From positions 1 to 64,000 of IMG/VR virus record IMGVR_UViG_3300021255_003284: DNA of 64,000 nt; one strand, written 5' to 3'. Both the position numbers and the translations under genes were made by a program. Under the pieces are notes generated by a model. It saw only the letters and a list, made by a program, of their open reading frames with translations. It did not search any database and was not told the origin of the DNA. Positions 5,056 to 40,900 of the stretch are shown piece by piece (the stretch's first letter is position 1; every line of letters begins with the position of its first letter). This stretch comes from a virus (Duplodnaviria; Caudoviricetes).

Positions 5056-5289
5056 ATGATTAAGGTTACTGTCGGCAACAACGTCACCCGCAACACCGTG
5101 ATCATCACCGAGAACACCACCGTCCGCGAGGTCCTGGAGAACAACGGCGTTTCCACGCAGACCGGTTCGCTGATGCTGTCCGGCGCGGTCCTCACGCCCG
5201 ATCAGGTCGACATGACCTTCGCCGACCTGGGTTTCCGCGGTGAGGCTTCCGCCACGCTGTACAACGTCGCCAAGCGCGACAACGCCTGA
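5056..5289 (+). CDS. ubiquitin-like (beta-grasp) small protein
   Basis: 77 aa; IKVTV..NTVII..TTVREVLENNGV..LML SGAVL..MTFADLG pattern; lies upstream of E2/JAB/E1; ends KRDNA. Confidence 0.6.
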   Translation: MIKVTVGNNVTRNTVIITENTTVREVLENNGVSTQTGSLMLSGAVLTPDQVDMTFADLGFRGEASATLYNVAKRDNA

Positions 5290-5307
5290 GGTTTTCCCGG
5301 TCTTTTC

Positions 5308-5362
5308 GGGATGGAGCCATGGCCCGTATCGCGGCCGGTTTCAAGGCTCCATCCCGGTTTTG
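5308..5362 (+). terminator. hairpin/terminator after the Ubl gene
   Basis: CGGGATGGAGCC...GGCTCCATCCCG followed by GTTTTGTT. Confidence 0.55.
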
Positions 5363-5459
5363 TTGGAAAATCAGATTCCCTGAATCGCCCGTGACGCGGG
5401 CTTTTCAGGGGATTTGATGAGATACATCTTATGTTCCCTAAGAAAGGAGTGCAGGGGTT

Positions 5460-6926
5460 TTGTTCAAGACGGCAATTACGAGCACGCCGTACACCACGGC
5501 GGCGGCTGACGGGTACTTCCACAGGATCGCCATTGAGGGCATGCCGTTGTACGGCGACATGTCCATCGTCGCCACGCTGCGGGCGCTTCTGTATAAGCGC
5601 ATGCCGGCCGAGGCGACGCTCTCAGTTTACCACGGGCTTTTGACGCCGCTCTCCGGTACGAGCGGGCTGACCGAGCGGTATCTCAGCCGGTTCATCAACT
5701 TCGCGTTCGGCGGCGGCAGCCAGAACCAGACGGCCCTGTCCATCTACAACGCGAGCTTTGAGCTCGCGAAGGAAACCCTCGACTACATGCACGAAAACCT
5801 GCACCGGGTCTGCCCGGGTTTCCATGAGATCGAAAAGGTCAACGCATTCTACAAAAAGGTTTTCGAGGTGAGGTGTTTCGTCAATGAGGACTCAGGCCAG
5901 TCCGTCCTCATCGTCGACCACCTGAACCTGCCGAAGTACCACCTCCTGCAGTCCGGCATTCTCGCGTATATCCCGTGGTTTTTCAAGCTCGAAGACGGGA
6001 TCACGGATGACGAGCGCGCCCTGCTCGAGTCCCTGCGCAAGCCCGATCCCGCCGACTATCTCAAAATCCTCGCCCGCATGGTCGGGTCTGTCGACCTGCG
6101 GTCCGAATTCATCCGGTCGTCGCTCGACGGTTTTGAGGATTCGCTCACGCAGGAAGAGCTGAACGCCGCCGAGAGAAACATGAACGACATCAATCAGGAG
6201 CTCGACCGCCTCAATGCGGAATTCGCCCGCATCCTGACGAAGAAGCGCCATTACGAGGCGCTGATGAACGGGCTTATGAACCCGTCAGTCCACCGCGAAT
6301 CCGCGCTGATGGAGTATTTCCTCGGCAATAAGAACCTGATCCTCAGGAGCTTTACGAACGACAATCTGGTTTTCTCTGTCCTCGCTGACCTCCAGTTCTT
6401 TGACGAGGACGCCATCGAAGAGTATCTCGGCAACCCGCGCTCGATCATCTACCTGCCGCGCGGCAGATCGTGCGAGAACATCATCCCGCACGATGACATG
6501 CGCCGGCTTTTCAGCGCGGTTTTCATCGATCGCAGGGTCAAGGTCAAGTTGTGCGCCACGTATTCCCTGTCCACGCACGGCCGGGTCGCCGGCCTCAGCG
6601 GCCAGGTTTACGGCCAGGAGTACGACGGCCGGATGCCCAACCCGCACATCAACAGCTATTCGTGCCTCGGCGATTACGCCCCGGCAATCCAGGCTTTCGT
6701 CGACCATTACGATTATGTCGGCGCGGTGAACCAGTGCGAGGCGTCGTGCCGGTCGATCAATGTGAATGAGCATGCCACGATGTCTGTTTTTATGGACGGG
6801 GTTTATGGTATCAACGGCGTCGTGCCGTTCCGGTGTTTCGAACTGCCGGACGGTCGGATTTTGACAGCCAAGGGAGCGGCCGCCGCGCTGCGTGAGATCG
6901 ATGGGGTAGAGGAGGAGTGCGCGTGA
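5460..6926 (+). CDS. coiled-coil protein with putative C-terminal prokaryotic E2-like domain
   Basis: PNPHINSYSCLG resembles the E2 (H)PN/H...CL active-site motif; central coiled coil; gene context. Confidence 0.55.
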   Translation: MFKTAITSTPYTTAAADGYFHRIAIEGMPLYGDMSIVATLRALLYKRMPAEATLSVYHGLLTPLSGTSGLTERYLSRFINFAFGGGSQNQTALSIYNASFELAKETLDYMHENLHRVCPGFHEIEKVNAFYKKVFEVRCFVNEDSGQSVLIVDHLNLPKYHLLQSGILAYIPWFFKLEDGITDDERALLESLRKPDPADYLKILARMVGSVDLRSEFIRSSLDGFEDSLTQEELNAAERNMNDINQELDRLNAEFARILTKKRHYEALMNGLMNPSVHRESALMEYFLGNKNLILRSFTNDNLVFSVLADLQFFDEDAIEEYLGNPRSIIYLPRGRSCENIIPHDDMRRLFSAVFIDRRVKVKLCATYSLSTHGRVAGLSGQVYGQEYDGRMPNPHINSYSCLGDYAPAIQAFVDHYDYVGAVNQCEASCRSINVNEHATMSVFMDGVYGINGVVPFRCFELPDGRILTAKGAAAALREIDGVEEECA

Positions 6927-7732
6927 GCAAGTTTATCAAACTGACCGCCGAAGCGGTCGCGTCCGCGGTTGCGGATTTTGAGAAGTACATCCGGGATTTC
7001 AAGATGTCCGACGGCAAGGTGTCATTCACCAAGGACATCGCCAGCAAGAACGCCCGGGCCAAACTCTGGTTCACGCCCGAGGCGTGGGTCAAGACCCAGC
7101 TGCTCGTCCAGTCGTTCGACAGCGAGATCGCGTGGCACGGCATTTGCGTCCGGAGCGAGGTGCCCGGGGAATTCCTGATTTCTGACGTTCTGGTTTATCC
7201 TCAGACCGTCACCGGCGCGACGGTGACCACCGACCAGAAGGGTTATCAGGACTGGCTCATGTCCCAGCCGGACGAGGTTTTCCAGAACCTCCGCATGCAG
7301 GGTCACAGCCACGTCAACATGGGTGTTTCGCCCTCGTCGGTCGACATCAACGACGAAAAGGCGACGCTTTCCCAGCTCACGGACGACATGTTCTATGTGT
7401 TCCTCATCCACAACAAGCGCGGCGACATCACGGTGCGGATCTTCGACCTCAGGGAAAACACGCTCTACGAGACGGCGGATGTGGATGTCGGCGTCGTCGG
7501 TATCGACATGAACGGGTTTTTGTCCTCGGCTAAGGGTGCGGTCAGTACAGCGCCGGTCCGTCCCGTGACTGCGCAACCGGCCTCCGCCGCGCCCGCTTCG
7601 GCATGGCTTCCGAAAAAGCCCGCCAAGGAAAAGCCCGCCGAGAAGAGGGCGGTCAAAAAGTACCCGCTCTCGTGGGCGGACCTCGACGACGACGAGTCCC
7701 CGTACGGCTATTCCTACTATCCCGGTTTTTAA
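6923..7732 (+). CDS. JAB/MPN+ metallo-isopeptidase
   Basis: Upstream Glu (DSEIAW) plus exact HxH-x7-S-x2-D (HSHVNMGVSPSSVD). Confidence 0.85.
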   Translation: MSKFIKLTAEAVASAVADFEKYIRDFKMSDGKVSFTKDIASKNARAKLWFTPEAWVKTQLLVQSFDSEIAWHGICVRSEVPGEFLISDVLVYPQTVTGATVTTDQKGYQDWLMSQPDEVFQNLRMQGHSHVNMGVSPSSVDINDEKATLSQLTDDMFYVFLIHNKRGDITVRIFDLRENTLYETADVDVGVVGIDMNGFLSSAKGAVSTAPVRPVTAQPASAAPASAWLPKKPAKEKPAEKRAVKKYPLSWADLDDDESPYGYSYYPGF

Positions 7733-7744
7733 GGAGGGTTTGTC

Positions 7745-8368
7745 ATGACCAGACAGGAATTCATCGATGACATCACTTACATCGGCGATCTCGTAAGGTT
7801 CTGCGACGACGTCGGCTGCGACATCTGCGGAGGGGTTTACGACGACGAAGCGCGAGACGACTACCTCGACCAACAGGTTTGCGATTGGGCTCACGACGAA
7901 GCGTGGTACGAACTCCGCGACATGCTCGACAACATCCCGACCGGGTACGACTGGTGGATCATCAATGACTACGGCGACTGGAATGGCATCGACGACGACG
8001 AGTTCGATCGCCTCAAGGACGACGTGCTCGACTGGGCCGACGAGCGCGGGGTTTTCGAGGACGATGACGATGACGACGAGGATCACACCATCCCGAACGC
8101 GGCCTACCGCGGTCCCGGGTACGAGCAGGAGACCGTCGCGTATGACCCCGACGCCGGCGACGGCAATGACTGCGCGGTTTTCGAGTTCGATGGTTCCGAC
8201 CTGATCAGCCCGGTGCGCATCGATCAGGTCGAGTGCGATGACGAGCTCGTCGGCGAGAACGGCGTGGAGTACGAGGTCGAGACCGAGATAACCCTGCGCT
8301 GGGTCCCGCCTGTTCAGTCTGATCCGGATCTCGCCCCGCTGGAATCGGCCGTCGGCATTCTTCTCTGA
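7745..8368 (+). CDS. highly acidic hypothetical protein
   Basis: 207 aa, poly-Asp tracts, CxxC near N-terminus, SD. Confidence 0.8.
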   Translation: MTRQEFIDDITYIGDLVRFCDDVGCDICGGVYDDEARDDYLDQQVCDWAHDEAWYELRDMLDNIPTGYDWWIINDYGDWNGIDDDEFDRLKDDVLDWADERGVFEDDDDDDEDHTIPNAAYRGPGYEQETVAYDPDAGDGNDCAVFEFDGSDLISPVRIDQVECDDELVGENGVEYEVETEITLRWVPPVQSDPDLAPLESAVGILL

Positions 8369-8388
8369 TAAACGAAGGGAGTGGGTTT

Positions 8389-9063
8389 ATGAATCTGTCC
8401 AAGTCCTACGAGTTTTTCAAACCCGAGTCGCTCGACGCCCGCGTCCACATCATCGGGTGCGGGTCTGTCGGGTCTACCATCGCCGAGAATCTCGCCCGGT
8501 GCGGTGTCACGAAGATGACGCTGTACGACTTTGACAAGGTCGAGGCGCACAACGTGCACAACCAGATGTTCCGCGCCTGCGACATCGGCAAGCCCAAGGT
8601 CGAGGCGCTCAAGGACATCCTGACCGAGATCAACCCGGAAATCGGGAACGACTTGGTTCTTCGGCCCAAGGGCTGGACGGGACAGATCGTGTCCGGCATC
8701 ATCGTGCTGGCGGTCGATTCGATCGAGCTGCGCCGTCAGATCGTCGAGGCGCACATGGACAGCGTGTTCGTTCGCGCGGTTTTCGACGTCCGGACAGGGC
8801 TTACCGACGCCCAGCACTTCGCCGCCAACTGGTCTGACCCGGCTTCCAAACACAACCTCCTCCAGTCGATGCAGTTTTCCCACGACGAGGCCACGGTTGA
8901 AACGCCGGTTTCCGCCTGCGGCGTCACGCTCGGCGTGGTCACCACGGTCAGGCTGATCTGCGCGCTGTGCGTGAACAACATGATCGCGTTCGCCAAGGGC
9001 GAGGGACTCAAGAAGTTTATCCAGATCGACGGTTTTTCATTCCTGCTCGACGCGTTCTCCTGA
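8389..9063 (+). CDS. ThiF/MoeB/E1-family adenylyltransferase
   Basis: IIGCGSVGS, YDFDKVEAHNVHNQ, KPKVEAL, AVDSIELR; candidate catalytic Cys in VSACG. Confidence 0.9.
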   Translation: MNLSKSYEFFKPESLDARVHIIGCGSVGSTIAENLARCGVTKMTLYDFDKVEAHNVHNQMFRACDIGKPKVEALKDILTEINPEIGNDLVLRPKGWTGQIVSGIIVLAVDSIELRRQIVEAHMDSVFVRAVFDVRTGLTDAQHFAANWSDPASKHNLLQSMQFSHDEATVETPVSACGVTLGVVTTVRLICALCVNNMIAFAKGEGLKKFIQIDGFSFLLDAFS

Positions 9064-9078
9064 CATGACACGTTTGAT

Positions 9079-9412
9079 CGGTATGACGGACAGCGAACCG
9101 CAATGTAATTCATGACTGGTTTTCCATTCATGGCTTTCGCTGTCAGCGGAAGTGACGACTTGACCGGAAAGGGGAATCCCTGGGAAGAGCTCAGCTGCAG
9201 CCTCCAGAGCGCCTTCGGTCTCGAGCCCGTGTCATCTGAACAAGGCACAAAAGGGAAAAGAACCGATGAGCAGGCAACTTTCCTACGTTCAATCCCACAT
9301 TGGAACATTCCCACCCTGAAGCCAAGTCGTTCCACCAGCTCTCGCGCTGCCAATAACCTCGCATGCCGACACGCACACCGCAAGTGATTCCGTTCGCGAG
9401 TCCGTCATACCG
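9079..9412 (+). ncRNA. retron-like ncRNA unit 1
   Basis: Perfect 13-bp terminal IR (9079-9091/9400-9412); GGTTTTCC-loop hairpin 9111-9132; conserved core GCTTTCGCTGTCAGCGGAAGTGACGACTTGACC 9133-9165. Confidence 0.75.
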
Positions 9413-9444
9413 CCGTCCCGGAAATCGCAAGGAGGTTTTTTGAG

Positions 9445-9693
9445 ATGAAGAAGGCCGACCCCATAACGATCGCCCTGTTCGCGCTCCTCATCATGGTTCT
9501 GTCCGCGTTTTCCGCGTTCAGCGCCGGGTTTTCCGCAGGCATATCCCATGCCATCACGGACAGCGTGATCTGGACGGTCGAGTGCTATGACCCGCTCGAC
9601 CCGTACGCCAACGCCCGTAACGACGGCACCGATCAGACAATCTACATCGAGCTCGACGGCGAGCTCTACGAACACGGCATGTTCCAAGGTTGA
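9445..9693 (+). CDS. small membrane protein
   Basis: AAGGAGG SD, N-terminal hydrophobic helix. Confidence 0.7.
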   Translation: MKKADPITIALFALLIMVLSAFSAFSAGFSAGISHAITDSVIWTVECYDPLDPYANARNDGTDQTIYIELDGELYEHGMFQG

Positions 9694-9707
9694 TAGGAGG
9701 GGTTTTT

Positions 9708-10004
9708 ATGAACCGTTCAGGCACGCCGCTGGACAGTTGGATTCTGACACAGAGTTGGGTCGACCCGTTCGACCATATGTACGACACGACCCATATTGTC
9801 GGGGTTTTTACGTCACTTCACGATCTGCAGGCATATATGCTCCGGAATGTCGGGCATACGATGGTGCAGGGCCATGACTGTTACGAGCTGAGATACGAGT
9901 CGGCCGACCGTACGGTCAACGCGCGGTTTTGCGCATGGCGCTGCGATGTCCCGAAGATCGAACACGACTGGGACGGCGAATTTAAGCCGATCTATGATGA
10001 CTGA
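9708..10004 (+). CDS. hypothetical protein
   Basis: AGGAGG SD before ATG 9708. Confidence 0.7.
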   Translation: MNRSGTPLDSWILTQSWVDPFDHMYDTTHIVGVFTSLHDLQAYMLRNVGHTMVQGHDCYELRYESADRTVNARFCAWRCDVPKIEHDWDGEFKPIYDD

Positions 10005-10009
10005 CAAAC

Positions 10010-10328
10010 GATGAACCGCAATGTGATGCGTACACGGTTTTCCGTATACGGCTTTCGCTGTCAGCGAAAGTGACATCTTGACCGAAGAGGCGAGGGGTAG
10101 AAGGACAGTACCCGACAGAGGTGGCACCTCAGGACACCAGGTCCGCAGCAATAGTTCAAGCATCAGCGTAAGCGAAGTATCACGATTTCGCTGCTAAAGA
10201 CCAGGGGTAAGAGCGAGAAAGTAACCAGCCACAGCTCGACAGCGCTCAAAAACCCTGGCTAAGCGATCAACATCGTGACTCAAGCCTGCCTTCGATCGTT
10301 GCTCGCCCGCAATGTGATTCGGTTCATC
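10010..10328 (+). ncRNA. retron-like ncRNA unit 2 (immediately upstream of the RT)
   Basis: 9-bp IR GATGAACCG/CGGTTCATC; hairpin 10029-10050; core GCTTTCGCTGTCAGCGAAAGTGACATCTTGACC 10051-10083. Confidence 0.75.
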
Positions 10329-10356
10329 ATGATCAATACCCGGCATTTGAAAGGAG

Positions 10357-12756
10357 TTGTTGAGCACGTTATACGTCACGGTTTTCCAATCGCCGAGGGT
10401 TCATCAGATGACGCTGGATGAGTTCCTGTTTTCCGAACCAGCTCCGGCGTCGGTTTTTGTGAATAATGAGAACAACACTCGCACGTACACGACCGACCGC
10501 GCGACCGACAGGCTTCACCGGGCTTTTGGCACCGACCTCGTGGCGCTCAAGCTCGCGCTCGGAGCGTTCAACAGAGACACGGAGCACCTGCGCGCCGTGC
10601 CGCGCCACAGTCTGTACAGGGAATTTTATATCCCCAAGTCCTCCGGCGGTCTGAGAAAGATCGACGCGCCGAACGACGAGCTCATGGCCGCGCTGCGCCG
10701 GCTCAAGGGCATTCTCGAAACCGACTTCCACGCGCTCTATCATACGTCGGCTTTCGCGTATGTCAAACACCGTTCGACGGTCGACGCGGTCAAGCGGCAC
10801 CAGATGAACGAGTCCAGGTGGTTTGCCAAGTTCGACCTGAGCAACTTCTTCGGCTCGACCACGCTGGATTTCTGCATGAGCCAGCTGGCGATGATCTACC
10901 CGTTCTCCGAGCTGATCCGCTGGGGCGGCGGGGAAGAGCTCAGAAGGGCGCTCGAGCTCGGGTTTCTGGACGGCGGTCTGCCGCAGGGCACGCCGCTGTC
11001 GCCTAAAATTTGGGCCTCAGCAGAGTGATCTGCTGTGATAACGCGGTGAACCCGCATATGCGGGGTGTCGCACTTACGTGGTGCGGCTAACGGGGAAACG
11101 CTAAACGCTAAAAGAATTAGGAGGTTACAAATTGGGAGGTTCTACACTGCACGACCTCACCGGTCAACGCTTCGGCTGGCTGGTCGTCATCGAACGGGCT
11201 CCCGGCGTACCCAAGTCGAACGGGAAGTTCCGAACGATGTGGCGGTGTGTCTGTGATTGCGGCAATACAACTATTGTCCCTGCATCCAGTCTTAAAGATG
11301 GGCACACTACGTCGTGTGGTTGCAAACCGAGGCCGACTAAAGCGCCGGATCTGATCGGACAAAGCTTTGGACGTCTTACTGTCCTGGCGCGATCCGGTTT
11401 TTATCGAGGTGGTACACACAGAGAGGCACAATGGCTATGTCGATGCGACTGCGGGAATGAAGTTGTGAAAACGACTACATATCTGCACAGATCGAATTGC
11501 CCATCCTGTGGATGCGCCAAGTCTGATAAGACGTCTGAGGTAAAACGGCTTGATCTCGTCGGCAAAAGGTTTGGTTTCTTGACTGTCGTTAAGTCGCTTC
11601 CGTCAAAGAAGACAAGCGGAGGCAATCCCGTGGCAATGAACGAATGCGTATGTGATTGCGGGAATAAAACGATATGCTCAACGAACAGCCTGATTTGTGG
11701 CAACACAAAATCGTGTGGATGTCTTAAGAGCTCTTACGGGGAAGCGCTCGTGACGGACAGTCTCAAAAGCCTCGGCGTCCGGTTTAAGCGCGAGTTTACC
11801 TTTGGCGACCTGAAAAGCGATAAAGGGTGGCCTTTAAGGTTTGACTTCGCGATATTTGAATCGGACACAGACAGGCCATCGTTTCTGATTGAATACCAGG
11901 GCGTGCAACATTTCAAAGAGGTGGGCTCTGGGTTATTTGCTGGTTTCGGAAGTCAACAGCGAGACGTTACTGACGATCAGAAACGCGAGTATTGTCGCAA
12001 GAATGGGTTTCCTCTATACGAGATTCGTTACGATGAAGATGTCTGTGCACGATTGAACGAAATCCTTTCAACGCATGCCAATCCCGTGCCAAGCTCTGGA
12101 AATTCCGGAGAAGGTGTAACGACTATTCCGTAAGGAAGTAGCCGACGGGTGAAATTCCCGCCGGCGAAGTGCCGCGCATCTCGATATCGAGATGAAGATA
12201 TAGTCTACTCCCCTAATGAAATATCGGGAAACCGAGGGTTCAAAGGACACTCACCAACATTTTAATGATCCCCATCGACCACACGCTGTCCAACTCGCTC
12301 CGCGATTTCGGCGGCAAACACTTCATCTACACCCGGTATGCCGATGATTTCCTGATCTCGAGCCGCACGGATTTTCGGTTCAGGGATGTCGAGCAGCACA
12401 TCCGCGATACGCTGGCGCGGTTTTCCGCCCCGTATATCATCAAGCCCGAGAAGACGCGCTACGGTTCCTCGGCTGGCTCCAACTGGAATCTCGGGCTCAT
12501 GCTCAACAAGGACAACGAGATCACGATCGGATCGAAGAAGAAGCGCCAGTTCCGCGCCATGCTCACGAGCTTCGTGCTCGATACGCGCAACGGTAAGCCG
12601 TGGGACCCGTCCGACATCCGCGTCATGGACGGGCTTCGCTCATACTACCGCATGGTTGAGGGCAAGACGATCGACGACATTGTCGACGCCATCGGCCGGA
12701 AATTCGGCGCGGATATCCCGCGTATGATCAAGGCCGGGCTCAACCCGACCGCTTAA
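10357..12756 (+). CDS. retron-like reverse transcriptase, spliced: join(10357..11004,12247..12756), about 385 aa
   Basis: IPKSSGGLRKIDAP, SAFAY, DAVKRH (NAxxH-like), KFDLSNFFGS, LPQGTPLSP|TLTNIL, YTRYADD, KPEKT, NLGLMLN. Confidence 0.9.
11005..12246 (+). mobile_element. group I intron in the RT gene
   Basis: Exon ends in U with P1 GCCU/GGGC (U-G pair); intron ends in G; Q-like AATCCCGTGCCAAGC; P7 GACTA/TAGTC; S element AAGATATAGTC; splicing restores frame and motif. Confidence 0.88.
11132..12133 (+). CDS. intron-encoded homing endonuclease (3x CDCG modules plus PD-(D/E)xK/Vsr-like domain)
   Basis: Repeated DL-G-RFG-L-V..C-CDCG..SCGC; C-terminal RFDFAI..LIEYQGVQHF. Confidence 0.8.
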   Translation: MGGSTLHDLTGQRFGWLVVIERAPGVPKSNGKFRTMWRCVCDCGNTTIVPASSLKDGHTTSCGCKPRPTKAPDLIGQSFGRLTVLARSGFYRGGTHREAQWLCRCDCGNEVVKTTTYLHRSNCPSCGCAKSDKTSEVKRLDLVGKRFGFLTVVKSLPSKKTSGGNPVAMNECVCDCGNKTICSTNSLICGNTKSCGCLKSSYGEALVTDSLKSLGVRFKREFTFGDLKSDKGWPLRFDFAIFESDTDRPSFLIEYQGVQHFKEVGSGLFAGFGSQQRDVTDDQKREYCRKNGFPLYEIRYDEDVCARLNEILSTHANPVPSSGNSGEGVTTIP

Positions 12757-12775
12757 TAAGAGGGGGTATTTCATC

Positions 12776-13048
12776 ATGGGTATCATCGCGTTTTCCGAAG
12801 GTATCGTCGGCGCGTGCGACAGGCTGCGCGGCGCGTCCGTGGGCGAGTTTCTGAACGCGCTCAACGTGCTCGGCGAGGTGCTCGCTCCGTCCACGATCGA
12901 GGCCTTGCGCGCCGCAGACCAGTCCGAACCGATCAGCGACGTGCTTTTCCGTAACTTCAGGAACAGCGTAGCGCTCAAGTGCAGGGTGGAATGCAACGCG
13001 ACGATGCGCCGCGTTCTGACGAGAAAGGAGGATCTCAATGCGGTCTGA
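12776..13048 (+). CDS. hypothetical protein
   Basis: SD; directly after the RT. Confidence 0.65.
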   Translation: MGIIAFSEGIVGACDRLRGASVGEFLNALNVLGEVLAPSTIEALRAADQSEPISDVLFRNFRNSVALKCRVECNATMRRVLTRKEDLNAV

Positions 13049-13340
13049 GATTTCGCGCATAGCCAGAAAGCACATGATGGACGCGCTCGCAATGGCGGCC
13101 ATGGAGGCCATGTACATATCCAATAACGAGGCCGTGCCCATGATCAAGTACTCCCGGGAAACCGAGGAAACGATAGCCCGGTTTTCCGACTTCGACCGCG
13201 AGTATCACGGGCTTTTGCCCGACGGTGAATACTTCTACATCACGCGCAAGGGTCAGCTGCTCTACGCCGTCAACGTGACCTGCGACAGCCCGCTCACCGC
13301 GTTTTCCGAGCTGACCCAACTCATCGCCCGCAAGTTCTGA
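13038..13340 (+). CDS. hypothetical protein
   Basis: AAAGGAGG SD. Confidence 0.75.
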   Translation: MRSEISRIARKHMMDALAMAAMEAMYISNNEAVPMIKYSRETEETIARFSDFDREYHGLLPDGEYFYITRKGQLLYAVNVTCDSPLTAFSELTQLIARKF

Positions 13341-13352
13341 CACCAATACAAA

Positions 13353-13575
13353 GGGCCCGCCCATGTCGATCGGATCGAACGAAACACGGTTTTCCTTCGT
13401 CACCCTCCTGTCCATATACGTTCGACCGCGTTCGCTGTCAGCGGACGTAACGCATTGACCTACCTGGTTTTCGCAGACCGGCGCGAGGCTTCCGAATTCC
13501 ATTAAGAACGGGTTACACGATGTAACCCTTGCTTAATGGCATTCAGAAGCCAGCACCATCTGGATGGCCGGGCCC
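13353..13575 (+). ncRNA. retron-like ncRNA unit 3
   Basis: IR GGGCCCGCCCAT/ATGGCCGGGCCC (11/12); core GCGTTCGCTGTCAGCGGACGTAACGCATTGACC 13428-13460; long msd-like hairpin 13487-13551. Confidence 0.75.
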
Positions 13576-13659
13576 GCCATCCGCATTTTCCATCATTCGC
13601 CTCGGCAAGTAGGTCTCCCGACATCACGGGAAGCGCCGAAGCTGCGGCACCCAACGGTT

Positions 13660-13863
13660 CCGCCCACCCATGAGGATCGGCTATTCTGGTTTTTCAGTTC
13701 AGCCGCTTTCGCTGTCAGCGGAAGTAACGCAATGACGGTTTTTTCGCCGAGGCCGCCGGACTGGCGCGCGACATTGTGCGCGCCATTAAGTCCGGCTGTC
13801 TCGGCGGACACGCAAAGTCTCACGCACGTAAGGCAAGGCGCTCAACTTTGGATGGCTGGGCGG
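13660..13863 (+). ncRNA. retron-like ncRNA unit 4
   Basis: IR CCGCCCACCCAT/ATGGCTGGGCGG (11/12); hairpin 13678-13705; core GCTTTCGCTGTCAGCGGAAGTAACGCAATGAC 13705-13736; long hairpin 13745-13806. Confidence 0.75.
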
Positions 13864-13900
13864 CCATTCGTACATTCAAAATATGAAAGGTGGTTTTCGC

Positions 13901-14545
13901 TTGTCTCACTACTCTGTCTGCGTCTTCTCACACTCCGGCACCGAATGCGAACTCGATTCCCTGCTCGCCCCGTACTCTGAGAACGTCGAGCCCGGTTCGC
14001 CGTACGCGGTTTTTGAGCCGAACACCGACAGTGACGTCGATCCGACGACGAACCAGCCCGGGTACTGGTACAACCCCGACGCCCGCTGGGACTGGTGGTG
14101 CGTCGGCGGCCGGTTCGATGGTTTCAAGCTGCGCCCGGAGGCGGCGAAGCGCCTCGGGTACGACTTCGATTGTGAGGCGCTGGTTTCCGACATCGACTTT
14201 TCCGACGACAAACAGGCCTACGACGAGGCGCTCTCGTTCTGGGACCACTACGTCGACGGCAAGCCGTCCGAAGACGGCGAGGATCACTCGAGTTTCTGGA
14301 AGCCGGAATACTACCGCGAGCGGTACGGTTCCCGGGAATTGTTCGCCCGGTCGCGGGCTTCTCAGAAACCCTACGCCTTCGTCACAGCCGACGGCGAGTG
14401 GGTCGGCGACGGTGTGGTCGGCTGGTTCGCGGTCGACGACGCCACGGACAAATCGATTACCGAATCGCTCGACCGCTGGGAAAAGTATCTCGCCGAAGCG
14501 ATCGAGCAGGATCTTCACGCGACGATGATCGACTGCCACATCTGA
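13901..14545 (+). CDS. hypothetical phage protein (YNPDARWDWW motif)
   Basis: AAAGGTGG SD before TTG; Trp-rich; ends DCHI. Confidence 0.8.
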   Translation: MSHYSVCVFSHSGTECELDSLLAPYSENVEPGSPYAVFEPNTDSDVDPTTNQPGYWYNPDARWDWWCVGGRFDGFKLRPEAAKRLGYDFDCEALVSDIDFSDDKQAYDEALSFWDHYVDGKPSEDGEDHSSFWKPEYYRERYGSRELFARSRASQKPYAFVTADGEWVGDGVVGWFAVDDATDKSITESLDRWEKYLAEAIEQDLHATMIDCHI

Positions 14546-26377: not shown

Positions 26378-28776
26378 TTGACGAAAGCCGAAGACATCAA
26401 CGCGATCGAAAGCGAAGCGGGCGTCATCGCCTCGCTCATCCACGATCCAGACCTCTGTTTCCATTCCGAGTTCCTTCTGCCGAATCACTTCACCGACAAG
26501 GCAAACCAGTGCGTCTACACAGCCATCGTCGACCTGGCGCACAAGGGCATTTCGACGATCGACGCGTACAACATCCTCGAAGACTTGAACGCGTCCGAGG
26601 CGACGCGCAAGTTCGCCGACGAGCTGACGCTCGACCGACTTCAGGAAATGATCGAGATGTCGGACGTGCTGGCGAGGCATTCGGCCGAGGAATACAGGCT
26701 GCTCGTCAACAACGTCATGGACGCGGCTTTCCGGCGCGATATGTACCGCGCGGCACAGACGTGCCAGGCGCTCTGCTGTGACCGCAACGCCGAGGACATC
26801 GAGCAGAAGATCTACGCCCAGATCGACGGCGTGATGACCGAGTTTTCCACGGCCAACGAGATCCCCGCGTTCGCGGACGTCATCGACGAATGCTGGAACG
26901 AGATCCGATCGCGCCAGTCCGGCGGGTACGCCGGTATCCCATTCAAGTTCCCCACGCTCAACGAGTACGCCACGATCGAGCCGGGCGAGCTGTTCATCTT
27001 CGCGGCCGAAGCCAAGCAGGGCAAAAGCATGATGCTTCTCAACTGCGCGGTCGACCTGCTCAAGCGCGACCTGTCGGTTTTGTATCTCGACTCCGAGCTC
27101 AATACGCGGCTTTTCACGGCCCGCATCCTCGCGCATCTGACCGGCATCGAGTACAAGCGGCTCACGTCCGGAAGCTACACCGAGGATGAGGCTAAGGCCA
27201 TAGACAAGGCGCGGGCGTGGCTCAAGACGCGGAAATTCACGCACATCTATATCCCGATTTTTGACCAGCAGACGATCTACACGGCGGTCAAAAAGGTCAA
27301 GCATGTCCAGAACGGGCTCGACGTTCTGATTGTAGATTACTTCAAGAGCAGCGGTAACGGCGACGCGTTCGATTCCTATCAGGAACTCGGCAAATTCGTG
27401 GATTGATTACAAGGTCCCGTGGCGGAGGAATCCGTCATGTAAAACCCGTTGAATTGCTGGAACCCCCAAAGCCATGTTTCCTACAACGCAGCGATGAAAC
27501 ACGCGCAGTCGTGATAGGCGCGAAAGCAGAAAGAAAAGCATGGATGGCGCATGGTGAAAACCTTAACGCTTTATAAACGGGCAATCAGCAGCCAAGCCCC
27601 GAACAGGGGAAGGTTCAGAGACTAAGCTCACTTGAGCGGCGCGTTCGCCATAGCGCGCTAAGCGGCGGGCATCCAGAACGGATGATGATGTAGTCCGATA
27701 TCCGGCGAAAGTCGGGCCGCGTAAGCGGCAGTGTGTAATTATTCTTATGATGAAAGGTGGTGATATGATGAACACAAAGTATAAAGACAGAACTGGTGAA
27801 CGGCATGGCAGGCTTTTGGTTCTCGGGCCTGCCGAAAGCAGGCGATCTTCAGATGGGAAACCAAGGCGGTATTGGCGGTGTCTGTGCGACTGCGGCAATA
27901 CGATAAATGTAAGGTCTGATTCGCTGGAAAACGACAGAACGAAATCATGTGGATGCCTGCAAAGAGATGTCATTAGCGAGTATATGAGGGAGCATCATCC
28001 GAAGGCGAAATACGGAGAGAGCAGAGAGAGGCTTCATAACATTTGGTATCTCATGAATTACAGATGCGAAGAGCCGACATGTTCTGCTTACAAAAACTAT
28101 GGCGGGCGCGGTATTCGGGTATGCAAAGAGTGGAAGGACGTTGATTGCGGGTATCCGAGGTTCAAAGAATGGGCCCTGCAAAATGGATACAACGATGAAT
28201 TGACAATCGACAGGATCGACAATAATGGTAATTACGAACCGTCGAACTGTCGATGGGTTGAAGCCTCTAAACAGAACCGCAATAAGCGTTCAAATATAAG
28301 GTGTGTTTGGCATGGCGCGGAATTTACTATTGCAGAGCTATCGCGAGAAGTTGGTATGCCATACAAAACACTATACAATCGTATCCGAGCATTGCATTGG
28401 GATATTGAGCGCGCTCTTACGACCCCTATAAGAAAGTAATTATGGCAAAGCACACTGAACATTTTTGCTTGTCAAAAACAAAATCTGCGGAGATATGGGC
28501 ATTGCCGGTATCGGTGCGGCTCAGGCCACATCCTCCGGCAAGGTCGCTGACTCGGCCAAGATCGGCCGCAACGCCTCGACGATCGCGCTCATTCAGGACA
28601 AATCAGCCGAGGAAATCGCGGCGGACGGCCCAGAATGCGGCAATAAGAAACTCCGCGTCGTCCTCAACCGCAACGGCATGCAGATGGCGGAGGGTGAATA
28701 TATAGACCTCAGCTTCGATGGAAACAAAATACTCTACGCCGAGGCGAAACAGCATATCCCACACGTCCCGTTCTGA
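26378..28776 (+). CDS. dnaB: replicative DNA helicase, spliced: join(26378..27403,28468..28776), about 444 aa
   Basis: ESEAGVI; AEAKQGKS; YLDSEL; LIVDY; exon 2 GAAQ..ADSAKIGRNAS..NRNG. Confidence 0.88.
27404..28467 (+). mobile_element. group I intron in dnaB
   Basis: P1 GGAU/GUCC; P GAATTGCTGGAA; Q AATCAGCAGCC; R TCAGAGACTA; S GATGTAGTCC; terminal G. Confidence 0.88.
27765..28439 (+). CDS. intron-encoded HNH-type homing endonuclease
   Basis: CLCDCG..SCGC; YGGRGI; LTIDRIDNNGNYEPSNCRW. Confidence 0.85.
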   Translation: MMNTKYKDRTGERHGRLLVLGPAESRRSSDGKPRRYWRCLCDCGNTINVRSDSLENDRTKSCGCLQRDVISEYMREHHPKAKYGESRERLHNIWYLMNYRCEEPTCSAYKNYGGRGIRVCKEWKDVDCGYPRFKEWALQNGYNDELTIDRIDNNGNYEPSNCRWVEASKQNRNKRSNIRCVWHGAEFTIAELSREVGMPYKTLYNRIRALHWDIERALTTPIRK

Positions 28777-37952: not shown

Positions 37953-40900
37953 ATGCAAATCCAGTTGAAACTGTCCAAGGACTTCGAGTCGTGCCTCGGC
38001 GATCTGAAAAAGAAATACGGTGAGGCTTTTGAGTACATCAACGGCCTGCATGACTCACAGCTTGACTTTTCAGAGTTCATCGATAACTTTGTCGCCAAGT
38101 CGACATTGGCGGATTCGTCCATAGATCCGAACGCGAACGCCAACCACAAGGACATCCGGTCGTTTATGACCGAAAAGGGCAAGAGCGAAGACAAGTTGTT
38201 CGGGCTGAACAAGATATTCAATACGATCAAGAAGCAGTGGGGTCTGCGTACGGCGCGCGAGTGGCTCGAACAGGAATACAGTCGCGGTTTCTACCTCAAT
38301 GACAGCGCAACGTCGTCATACTTCCCATATTGCTTCGCTGTCGATCTGTCCCGTCTGGCTACTGAGGGACTTTTCTTCCTCGATAAATACAATAACGAGC
38401 CGCCCAGGCATCTGACGACATTCCTTGACGACGTGATTGAGTTCGTGTCGTTCTTATCAAACCGCCAAAGCGGAGCCTGCGGGCTGCCGAATATCATCGT
38501 ATGGTCGTGGTATTTCTGGAAAAAGGACTGCGAAGACGGTTACTTCATGAAAGACCATGAATACTATCTTCGCCAGCAGTTCCAGAAGCTGCTGTTCCGA
38601 CTGAATCAGCCGTTTTTGAGGATTAAAACACATATTGGTCCCTGTTATGCAAAAGCGTAACAGCAAACGCATCGAATTGCTGGAACGCCCTTAGAGCTTC
38701 CTGGCTACAACGCACGGATGAAACACGCCGATACGTGAATGCTTGAAAACGTGGAAGATTGGGTAATCAGCAGCCAAGCCCCGACGAGGGGAAGGTTCAA
38801 CGACCATCCGGTAGCGGAGTAGGGGCAAGCGCCCCGAAGCGGTGCGCGCCGTATTACGGCGATGATATGGTCTGGACTGCCGCGAAAACGGCAGAAACCA
38901 CATTTGTGGACAGCGTGCGCTAAATAAAATGATGAAGGAGGTGATTTATTGAAGAAGCCATGCGAATTGGACGGCAAAAGATTCGGTAAGCTTACCGCAG
39001 TCAAACGCGTTTCAGATAAAATCTATCCAAGCGGAAGACATGACATCGTTTATCAATGCCTGTGTGATTGTGGTCAGTATACTGACGTGCTTGCCGTTCA
39101 TCTCAATAGTGGTCATACGCGGTCATGCGGGTGCCTTAGAGCGGAAACTACTTCGAAAAACATGACTACACACGGTCAAAGCAGTACGAGGCTTTTTACC
39201 ATATGGAAAAACATGAAGTCGAGATGCACAAATCCAAATAATCCGTGTTTTAATCAATATGGCGGGCGTGGCATAACTGTGTGTGATGCGTGGATTGAAG
39301 ACTTCGCCGTTTTCTACGATTGGTCGATTAAGCACGGTTACAATGACGATCTCTCTATAGATAGAGTAAACGTTAATGGCGATTATGATCCTGATAATTG
39401 CAGGTGGGTCAGCCAGAAAACTCAGTGCAACAACACGCGCAGAAATATAATGATTGAGCATGACGGCGAGCTCCGTACGGCTAAACAGTGGTCTGACGAA
39501 CTTGGCATTAAATATGGGACTCTGATATCGAGGATACGCAGAGGGTGGGATGTTGATAGGGCGTTATCGGTATGAGCGGGCGCACGCTGAACTTAACGCG
39601 ATCAGTCAGCATTTACAAATGTTTCCATTTTCGATCATCCCTACCTCGAAGCGCTCTTCGGCGGCGTCGTCTTCCCGGACGGCACGATGGCCATCGACCA
39701 CATCGACGACATCATCGAGTGCGAGAAGGTTTTCATGGACGTCGTCAGTGAGACCAGAGAGATCAACATGTTCACGTACCCGGTGTTAACATTCTCTTTA
39801 CTTTACAAGGACGGCCAGTTCATCGATGAGGAATTTGCCCGCTACGCTTCATCTCACAATATGAAGTGGTCAGATTCCAACTTCTTTGTCAGCGACAATG
39901 TCGGCGTCCTTTCCAACTGCCCCGTATCCGGCGATACAAACGTCGTCTATTGGGACGCGGCTGAGGGGAAATTCGACATCGCGACGATGCGCACGCTCTA
40001 TGGCATGAAGTGCGACAACCCGCTTTTCAAGATCCACGTCCTCAACCACGGCGATGTCGTCGAATGCAACATCAATAAGTACAGCGTCCCGATCGAGTAT
40101 GAGATCGAGCTCGCCAACGGCGTCAGGGTCAAGACGACAGCCAACCATCTCAATCGTATTTATGATGGCGACGATACGCGGACCGACATGCTTTCTCTCG
40201 ACGACTATCTGCCGTTCAGCGCCGTACCGTATACCGCGCCTGGCAGCGATTACGAGAGCGGCGTCAACCTTGAGTTCAAAGACGGCAAGGCTTTTGGCGT
40301 CAATACCGGGCTCAATTACCAGTACTACGATGGCGTCGATCTGCGTACGCTCAACCACAGTCCGCAATTCAGGCGCGGCGCGCTCGAAGGGCTCGCGCTG
40401 GCAACGAGCGGCAAGCGCAACGAGATCGTTACGACGTCCACCTTCCTGCGCGATTCCGTCACGACGCTTATCGCGTCGATCGGCTTCCTGCCGATGGTAG
40501 GGGCTGAATCGGTCGGCATGGTCGCTGACTCGGCCGAGCCGGTGACTCGATATCACATTTCGTGGCGCAAGCCGTCCAGAGAAAACTATGAGGAAGGCGT
40601 CTACTTCTGTGAAGGCGACTCGTTCTGGGTGCGCATCAAATCGATCCGCAAACTCAACGGCGACGACAAGCAAAGCTACTGTCTGAGCGTCATCGACAGA
40701 GACGCCGACCCGGTCTTCATGCTGGCCAACGGCCTGCACACGCATAATTGCCGGCTTCTGAGCGACACGACGAAACTCGACGCGTTCATCAACTCCATCG
40801 GCGGCACGGCGCTGTCGGTCGGATCGTGCCGTGTCAGTACGATCAACCTTGTCCGCATCGCGTACGAAAGCGGTCTGGACAAAGAAAAGTATATCCAGAT

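Follow-up and report, generated by a model that had tools for sequence, protein, structure and literature searches.

A retron-type reverse transcriptase of a gut phage and the four non-coding RNA units that surround its gene

Retrons are bacterial defence units composed of one RNA, one reverse transcriptase (RT) and one effector, and to our knowledge every known retron assigns a single RNA to its RT. A different ratio is found in DRT3, which combines two RTs, UG3 and UG8, with one non-coding RNA (ncRNA). In engineered multiplexed retrons (recombitrons and multi-donor editing), one RT is described as working with several msr-msd RNAs that have a common scaffold and different inserts (10.1101/2023.03.24.534024). 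In viruses, 338 retron-like RTs have been reported, with their RNAs left unmentioned (PMC13681634). The locus considered here belongs to the IMG/VR virus record IMGVR_UViG_3300021255_003284, which is 108,453 bp long, is judged 92% complete and comes from a large gut phage that appears virulent; the first 64 kb of this record form the window that was analysed, and coordinates refer to it. Four ncRNA units with different cargoes, two on either side of a retron-type RT gene, are built there on one scaffold, and the locus is probably a phage-borne retron-type system in which one enzyme uses several templates. It has in common with DRT3 a non-canonical RT:ncRNA stoichiometry, although here one RT is found with many ncRNAs; and, unlike the engineered multiplexed retrons, which are man-made, it is natural. 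The first-pass annotation of this DNA had named no described system with such a layout, and no published description was found: searches of open-access text gave no account of natural multi-RNA retrons, nor of a module that joins an RT to an E1-type enzyme like the one encoded beside this array.

The four units have the anatomy set out in the first-pass annotation, at positions that agree to within 1 nt (Table 1). Their elements follow a common order, namely a unit-specific 5' arm, a G, a variable hairpin (SL1), a core hairpin (SL2), a box, the cargo, a second G and a 3' arm complementary to the first, and the two Gs that would face each other at the base of the closing stem are present in every unit. 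In each of the four minimum free energy (MFE) folds the arms are paired along their whole length or the greater part of it. Between units 3 and 4 they differ at three positions, each of which is matched by a change on the opposite arm, and the single mismatch stands at the same position. SL2 has the form C-UUUCGCU-GUC-AGCGGAAG, and the compensatory T-A to G-C swap reported for the unit 3 core is confirmed; the box has the form GURAC-N3-UUGAC. The 18-nt core TTCGCTGTCAGCGRAMGT occurs in four copies on the + strand of the window, against 0.02 expected by chance, and no further unit-like copy was found elsewhere in the whole 108,453-bp record. The MFE folds of units 1-3 contain both hairpins, and that of unit 4 contains the first but not the core hairpin; the fold z-scores of units 1-4 are -2.5, -2.8, -5.6 and -6.0, respectively. 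A terminator-like hairpin with a T-run at 13561-13583 overlaps the 3' arm of unit 3, and its fold competes with the closing stem. A scan for sigma-70 promoters gave no + strand promoter ahead of any unit, the sole + strand match (10715-10743) falling inside RT exon 1.

Table 1. Coordinates and parts of the RNA units, the split reverse transcriptase gene and the neighbouring E1-type gene
Feature	Position	Strand	Parts and matches
ThiF/E1-type adenylating enzyme	8389..9063	+	Pfam ThiF 2.3e-24; PDB MoeB/UBA5/Cap2 matches
Unit 1 (class 1)	9080..9411	+	5' arm 9080-9104, G 9105, SL1 9111-9132, SL2 9133-9153, box GACGACTTGACC 9154-9165, cargo ~9166-9385, G 9386, 3' arm 9387-9411
Unit 2 (class 1)	10010..10328	+	5' arm 10010-10022, G 10023, SL1 10029-10050, SL2 10051-10071, box 10072-10083, cargo ~10084-10315, G 10316, 3' arm 10317-10328
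RT exon 1	10357..11004	+	~80-aa family-specific N-terminal extension, then RT motifs to ...GLPQGTPLSP; RVT_1 2.4e-9; retron RT models
Group I intron	11005..12246	+	holds HNH homing endonuclease ORF 11132-12133
RT exon 2	12247..12756	+	TLTNILMIPID..., YADD, thumb; PADLOC RT_II-A 1.6e-22; NCBIfam retron_St85_RT 8.6e-23
Unit 3 (class 2)	13353..13575	+	5' arm 13353-13364, G 13365, extended SL1, SL2 13428-13448, cargo with long hairpin ~13487-13551, G 13563, 3' arm 13564-13575
Unit 4 (class 2)	13660..13863	+	5' arm 13660-13671, G 13672, SL1, SL2 13705-13725, cargo hairpin ~13745-13806, G 13851, 3' arm 13852-13863

Homologues of the RT, with 44-66% identity, are encoded at about 150 loci in viral contigs, metagenomes and metagenome-assembled genomes sampled from gut, rumen and termites. 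These relatives lack the exact core motif, and their units were sought by structural grammar and covariance model instead. The model was built from 56 units taken from the relatives' loci, with the window sequence excluded. In the window it matches unit 1 (9099-9173) with an expectation value (E) of 7.2e-10, unit 2 (10017-10091) with E 2.2e-7, unit 4 with E 0.014 and unit 3, in part, with E 0.11; the single other match in 128 kb (both strands of the window) has E 1.5 and is to the core of unit 4, which is palindromic, in reverse orientation. At E up to 1 the model gave 258 matches in 96 related loci, every one of them oriented like the RT gene and grouped directly ahead of it or behind it. Most loci have two or three units (range 1-5), usually one upstream and one or two downstream of the RT gene; the upstream units stop 13-54 nt ahead of the RT start, the first downstream unit begins 8-60 nt past the RT stop and the rest follow in tandem. 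Having several units per RT is thus normal for this phage family, and the median length of its units is 304 nt. At one locus (L125, 6185-6345), two matches downstream of the RT gene lie merely 91 nt apart, and the pair may represent a truncated or nested unit.

The structure of the units is conserved together with their position. SL1, which was not demanded in the selection of units, has two-sided changes at all 6 of its pairs, and overall pairing in the covariation test is 84%, compared with 40-51% when the partners are slid. A complementary 3' arm lies within 520 nt of 116 of the 129 distinct model matches and of 9/129 controls (score >=9 of 14, the control arm being the stretch 25 nt upstream). 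A G directly follows the 5' arm in all 56 units of the model and directly precedes the 3' arm in 97/99 units, in a test that did not require it. The scaffold shared by the four units, with its retron msr-msd layout, is conserved and covaries across the phage family.

The first-pass annotation had also counted a hairpin with a GGTTTT loop among the scaffold elements. The hairpin stands, as the covarying SL1; the loop is a motif of the whole phage and not a scaffold feature, and the SL1 hairpins of the relatives bear other loops. In the window, GGTTTTCC has 17 copies on the + strand against 1.9 expected, some of them within genes. In the whole genome, GGTTTT is found 124 times on the + and 26 times on the - strand, and GTTTTCC 31 and 13 times, respectively; 19 of the 31 + strand copies of GTTTTCC fall at 1.4-13.4 kb, and the span noted for the motif is 1393-31316 of the window. 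Both GGTTTTCC and GTTTTCC are strongly strand-biased, and several copies in genes read xxG-TTT-TCC (Phe-Ser). The GGTTTT/GTTTTCC motif also makes up the SL1 loops of units 1-3.

The region contains one RT gene, and its retron type, already recognised at first pass, is borne out by PADLOC, NCBIfam and the PDB. Each exon alone matches retron RT models in profile searches; the score against NCBIfam retron_St85_RT is under the curated cut-off because the exons were scored one at a time. Full-length relatives match PADLOC RT_II-A best, at 1e-42 to 1e-44, and the top 25 matches are all to retron models. In PDB sequence searches, retron RTs such as Ec83, Ec67, Ec78/St85, Kva2 and Ec86 make up 12 of the 14 matches, including the nine best. 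Across the exon junction, uninterrupted relatives continue as ...GGLPQGTP.SP|T.TN.MMIP.D..., where the vertical line marks the junction, and a related strain (run X4) has an intron-free RT allele in which 10988 is joined to 12246, which places the intron at 11005-12246. The open reading frame (ORF) within the intron matches phrog_374, an HNH endonuclease, at 4e-50, and the 3' part of the intron resembles phage group I introns, with a weak match to Rfam Intron_gpI (E 0.02). No cultured phage with this RT was found, the sole match in phage collections being a metagenomic record.

To what had been noted at first pass, two features can be added: there are two classes of unit, and the RT array has a ThiF/E1 operon upstream with which it is tightly linked. 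Class 1, to which units 1 and 2 and most family units belong, has a cargo of about 226 nt that folds weakly (mean z -1.1), begins with a purine-rich tract and is T-poor in the RNA sense (19.6% vs 24.7% for the loci). Class 2, comprising units 3 and 4, has another linker after the G and a cargo of 103-118 nt dominated by a long hairpin, with fold z-scores of -6.9 in unit 3 and -7.0 in unit 4; a long stem-loop resembling msd is seen in these two units and not in units 1 and 2 or most family units. Class 2 occurs in at least one relative, most clearly at locus L005, and usually lies further downstream. Similar long-hairpin candidates are present at L083, L087 and L126, where the arms pair only partly in the fold.

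The cargo changes fast. Clustering of 108 units gave 91 sequence clusters, the cargo being common only to near-identical phages, and no cargo families were found among these units beyond such phages. Six pairs of closely related phages differ by 10-24% in the interior of the cargo, compared with 0.5-5% in the RT gene, 5-12% at third codon positions of other long ORFs and 1-3% in the scaffold (four pairs), and the excess of the cargo over third codon positions is significant in 5/6 pairs. Divergence climbs about 20-30 nt after SL2 and drops across the last 20 nt ahead of the 3' arm. The same pattern is seen between strains of this phage: in strains X2 and X4 no differences are listed at 9015-9213 and 10005-10090, and 9213-9336 differs by about 16%; in related strains the scaffold of unit 2 (10005-10090) is unchanged and its cargo is partly replaced. 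The substitutions are mostly transitions, involve all four bases and are not adenine-specific. Cargo of different strains also differs by 1-nt indels, which argues against a coding role; stop-free sense frames are in slight excess (26 vs 13.4). In unit 3 of strain X2, single-base indels occur on both arms of the hairpin in nearly mirrored positions (13496/13543 and 13486/13555), a pattern that would fit selection for the hairpin. The cargo hairpin of unit 4 (13730-13848) is matched on the other strand in strains X2 and X4, and this palindromic cargo may have been inverted or rebuilt between strains. Since the cargo changes at or above the neutral rate, any product would probably act by its amount, length or shape and not by a fixed sequence.

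The likeness to bacterial retrons extends from the enzyme to the RNA. The RT is of the retron clade, closest to type II-A (the St85/Sen2 family) and type I-A (Ec78/Ec83); the ncRNA is closed by terminal inverted repeats and has, just inside its 5' arm, a conserved G with another G opposite it on the 3' side; and two msr-like hairpins are followed by a template region, which in units 3 and 4 holds the msd-like hairpin. Unlike bacterial retrons, the phage system has two to five RNAs per RT (four here), placed on both sides of the RT gene, is carried by a large, seemingly virulent phage without a known retron effector, has for the most part weakly folded cargos of about 226 nt, and is constantly tied to a ThiF/E1 operon; its RT differs in the NAxxH and VTG motifs and in an extra N-terminal segment of about 80 amino acids. 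In the mechanism that we favour, the intron would be spliced out and the single RT would then bind the four separate ncRNAs by a handle of about 95 nt that all of them contain, consisting of the conserved G, the variable hairpin, the core hairpin, a GUAAC..UUGA box and the purine tract. Each RNA would be closed by its own terminal stem of 12-25 bp, which would set the 5' G opposite the conserved 3' G. From the 2'-OH of the 5' G the RT would prime as in retrons, copying the cargo of each unit from the 3' side toward the handle, and the products would be four distinct RT-DNAs of about 100-230 nt. It is the priming, the synthesis of complementary DNA (cDNA) and its stop point that we infer here.

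Several observations weigh against a retron-type reading. In an alignment to the Ec83 RT, the retron signatures are altered, NAxxH (NAKIH) being replaced by AVKRH and VTG by NLG. As the N-terminal residues, some 80 in number, are moreover peculiar to this phage family and the matches are to retron models, the RT is, by its sequence, a divergent member of the retron clade and not a canonical retron RT. No Rfam family was found for the units at gathering or permissive thresholds, and PADLOC gave no match to a retron effector among the three upstream ORFs scanned (E2-like, JAB-like and acidic). The class 1 cargo is without the long msd hairpin of classical retrons, and change at or above the neutral rate could mean that the cargo is functionless. 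Finally, the hint from RNA is weak. In the metatranscriptome of the same sample, which is a possible source of this assembly, only two contigs fall within 8800-14200, at 9034-9345 (unit 1, starting 46 nt upstream of the 5' arm) and 10090-10271 (cargo of unit 2), stretches without contig cover being no evidence of silence; both contigs are 100% identical to the window, their depth is about 3 and DNA carry-over is possible. Their placement in units 1 and 2 is not that of random cover, and it hints at the abundance of these two RNAs.

These RNA contigs bear on the alternative that survives best, which we nevertheless regard as unlikely: that the units act as RNA only, as abundant structured small RNAs of the phage (regulators, sponges or RT-binding RNAs) that are never reverse transcribed, the RT having another template or role. 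The units have indeed been seen just in an RNA library, and a class 1 cargo that is weakly structured and unconstrained in sequence would be compatible with this. However, in their conserved G|G junction, closing stem and handle the units look like a retron priming site, and in nearly every locus they are strand-locked to, and abut, an RT of the retron clade. Small regulatory RNAs, moreover, usually keep a conserved seed, and none was seen in the units.

It is very unlikely that the units are used as in DRT2 (UG2), with template jumping between the terminal direct repeats of units 1 and 2 and rolling-circle synthesis of a concatemeric cDNA that encodes a repeat protein. DRT2/Neo does resemble the phage system in having an RT with a dedicated structured ncRNA, a stem-bounded template and weak similarity in palm and thumb, exon 2 matching Drt2 models weakly (E 4e-6 and 1.7e-4), and the two ends of unit 2 carry the 12-nt repeat CCGCAATGTGAT with a spacing of 291 nt, a multiple of 3. 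In unit 1, however, the repeat spacing is 280, and 107 units have no mod-3 bias in cargo length (42/33/32) or in the distance from G to arm (40/38/29). Antisense stop-free frames are at shuffle level (18 vs 14.3), the cargo has 1-nt indels between strains, and retron models far outscore Drt2. The phage system differs from DRT2/Neo in lacking a mod-3 or open-frame signature and in having a retron-clade RT, several RNAs and a junction that resembles a priming G. A Neo-like endless ORF made by rolling circle was rejected, as there is no mod-3 or frame signal.

An equally small chance attaches to the view that the units are non-autonomous mobile elements, that is, miniature inverted-repeat transposable elements (MITEs) or cassettes that happen to gather near the RT gene. 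Like such elements, the units bear inverted repeats of 12-14 nt at their ends, vary in copy number and are unrelated in their interiors. Yet the arms differ among the units of one phage and covary, as would be expected of an RNA stem rather than of a transposase site; 258/258 model matches are on one strand beside the RT gene; there are no copies elsewhere in the genome; and no target-site duplications were noticed. MITE-like elements are hard to reconcile with the unit-specific covarying arms, the single strand and the constant adjacency to the RT. Least probable of all is mutagenic retrohoming of the kind found in diversity-generating retroelements (DGRs), in which each cargo would serve as the template repeat for diversifying a target gene: the RT is phage-borne and the cargo differs strongly between close strains, but the 108-kb genome holds no second cargo copy (the longest shared words, of 12-16 nt, are at or near shuffle level), the transitions affect all four bases without a preference for adenine and the top-scoring RT matches are all retron models. 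The DGR candidate was rejected when the target search in the 108-kb genome found none and the mutation spectrum proved wrong.

In 127/150 loci the gene immediately upstream of the RT-proximal unit encodes a ThiF/E1 enzyme, and two more upstream ORFs are present in 102-105 loci, the genes downstream of the array being unconserved. In 64 loci there is an acidic ORF (207 aa, at 7745-8368 in the window) that either precedes the array or follows it closely. In the window the operon spans 5056-9063 and has ThiF/E1 as its last gene, and throughout the family it is conserved together with the RT array. The identity of the E1 is solid on sequence grounds. The JAB-like upstream ORF has weak matches to RPN11 (E 0.11); the labels E2-like and Ubl-like have no support in Pfam or PADLOC, and E2-like has none in PDB sequence searches. 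The linkage of RT array and E1 points either to a single functional module or to an anti-defence locus that the two share, and our best guess is that the array takes part, together with the adjacent ThiF/E1 operon, in host takeover or counter-defence.

In these phages, retron chemistry seems to have been captured and set to work on many templates, without a known effector and in fixed linkage with an E1-type enzyme, and this form points to a function of retron DNA other than bacterial defence. Far more tentative is the wider proposal that gut and rumen phages share a natural multiplexed RT-DNA factory, in which one RT serves two to five interchangeable templates and works with the ThiF/E1 operon in takeover or counter-defence, the cargo changing faster than neutral through feedback of cDNA errors into the genome or through an arms race. 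The divergence of cargo beyond that of third codon positions raises the question of whether RT products can rewrite their own genes. In practical terms, natural variation provides a design table that would be useful for multiplexed retron editing: the handle (about 95 nt) and roughly the final 20 nt are constant, and 100-240 nt between them are tolerated.

All genes and units between 8389 and 13863 are on the + strand. The ThiF/E1 gene is followed by unit 1, which begins 17 nt past its stop codon, by ORFs of 82 and 104 aa, by unit 2 and by the split RT gene; 3' of RT exon 2 come ORFs of 90 and 100 aa and then units 3 and 4. The 104-aa ORF between units 1 and 2 (9697-10005) is replaced in strain X2 by 323 unrelated letters, both flanking scaffolds being the same. 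Elsewhere in the window, Rfam identifies a RAGATH-16 RNA at 160-230 and two more group I introns, at 27394-27717 and 38614-38894; with the one in the RT gene, the phage therefore has at least three group I introns.

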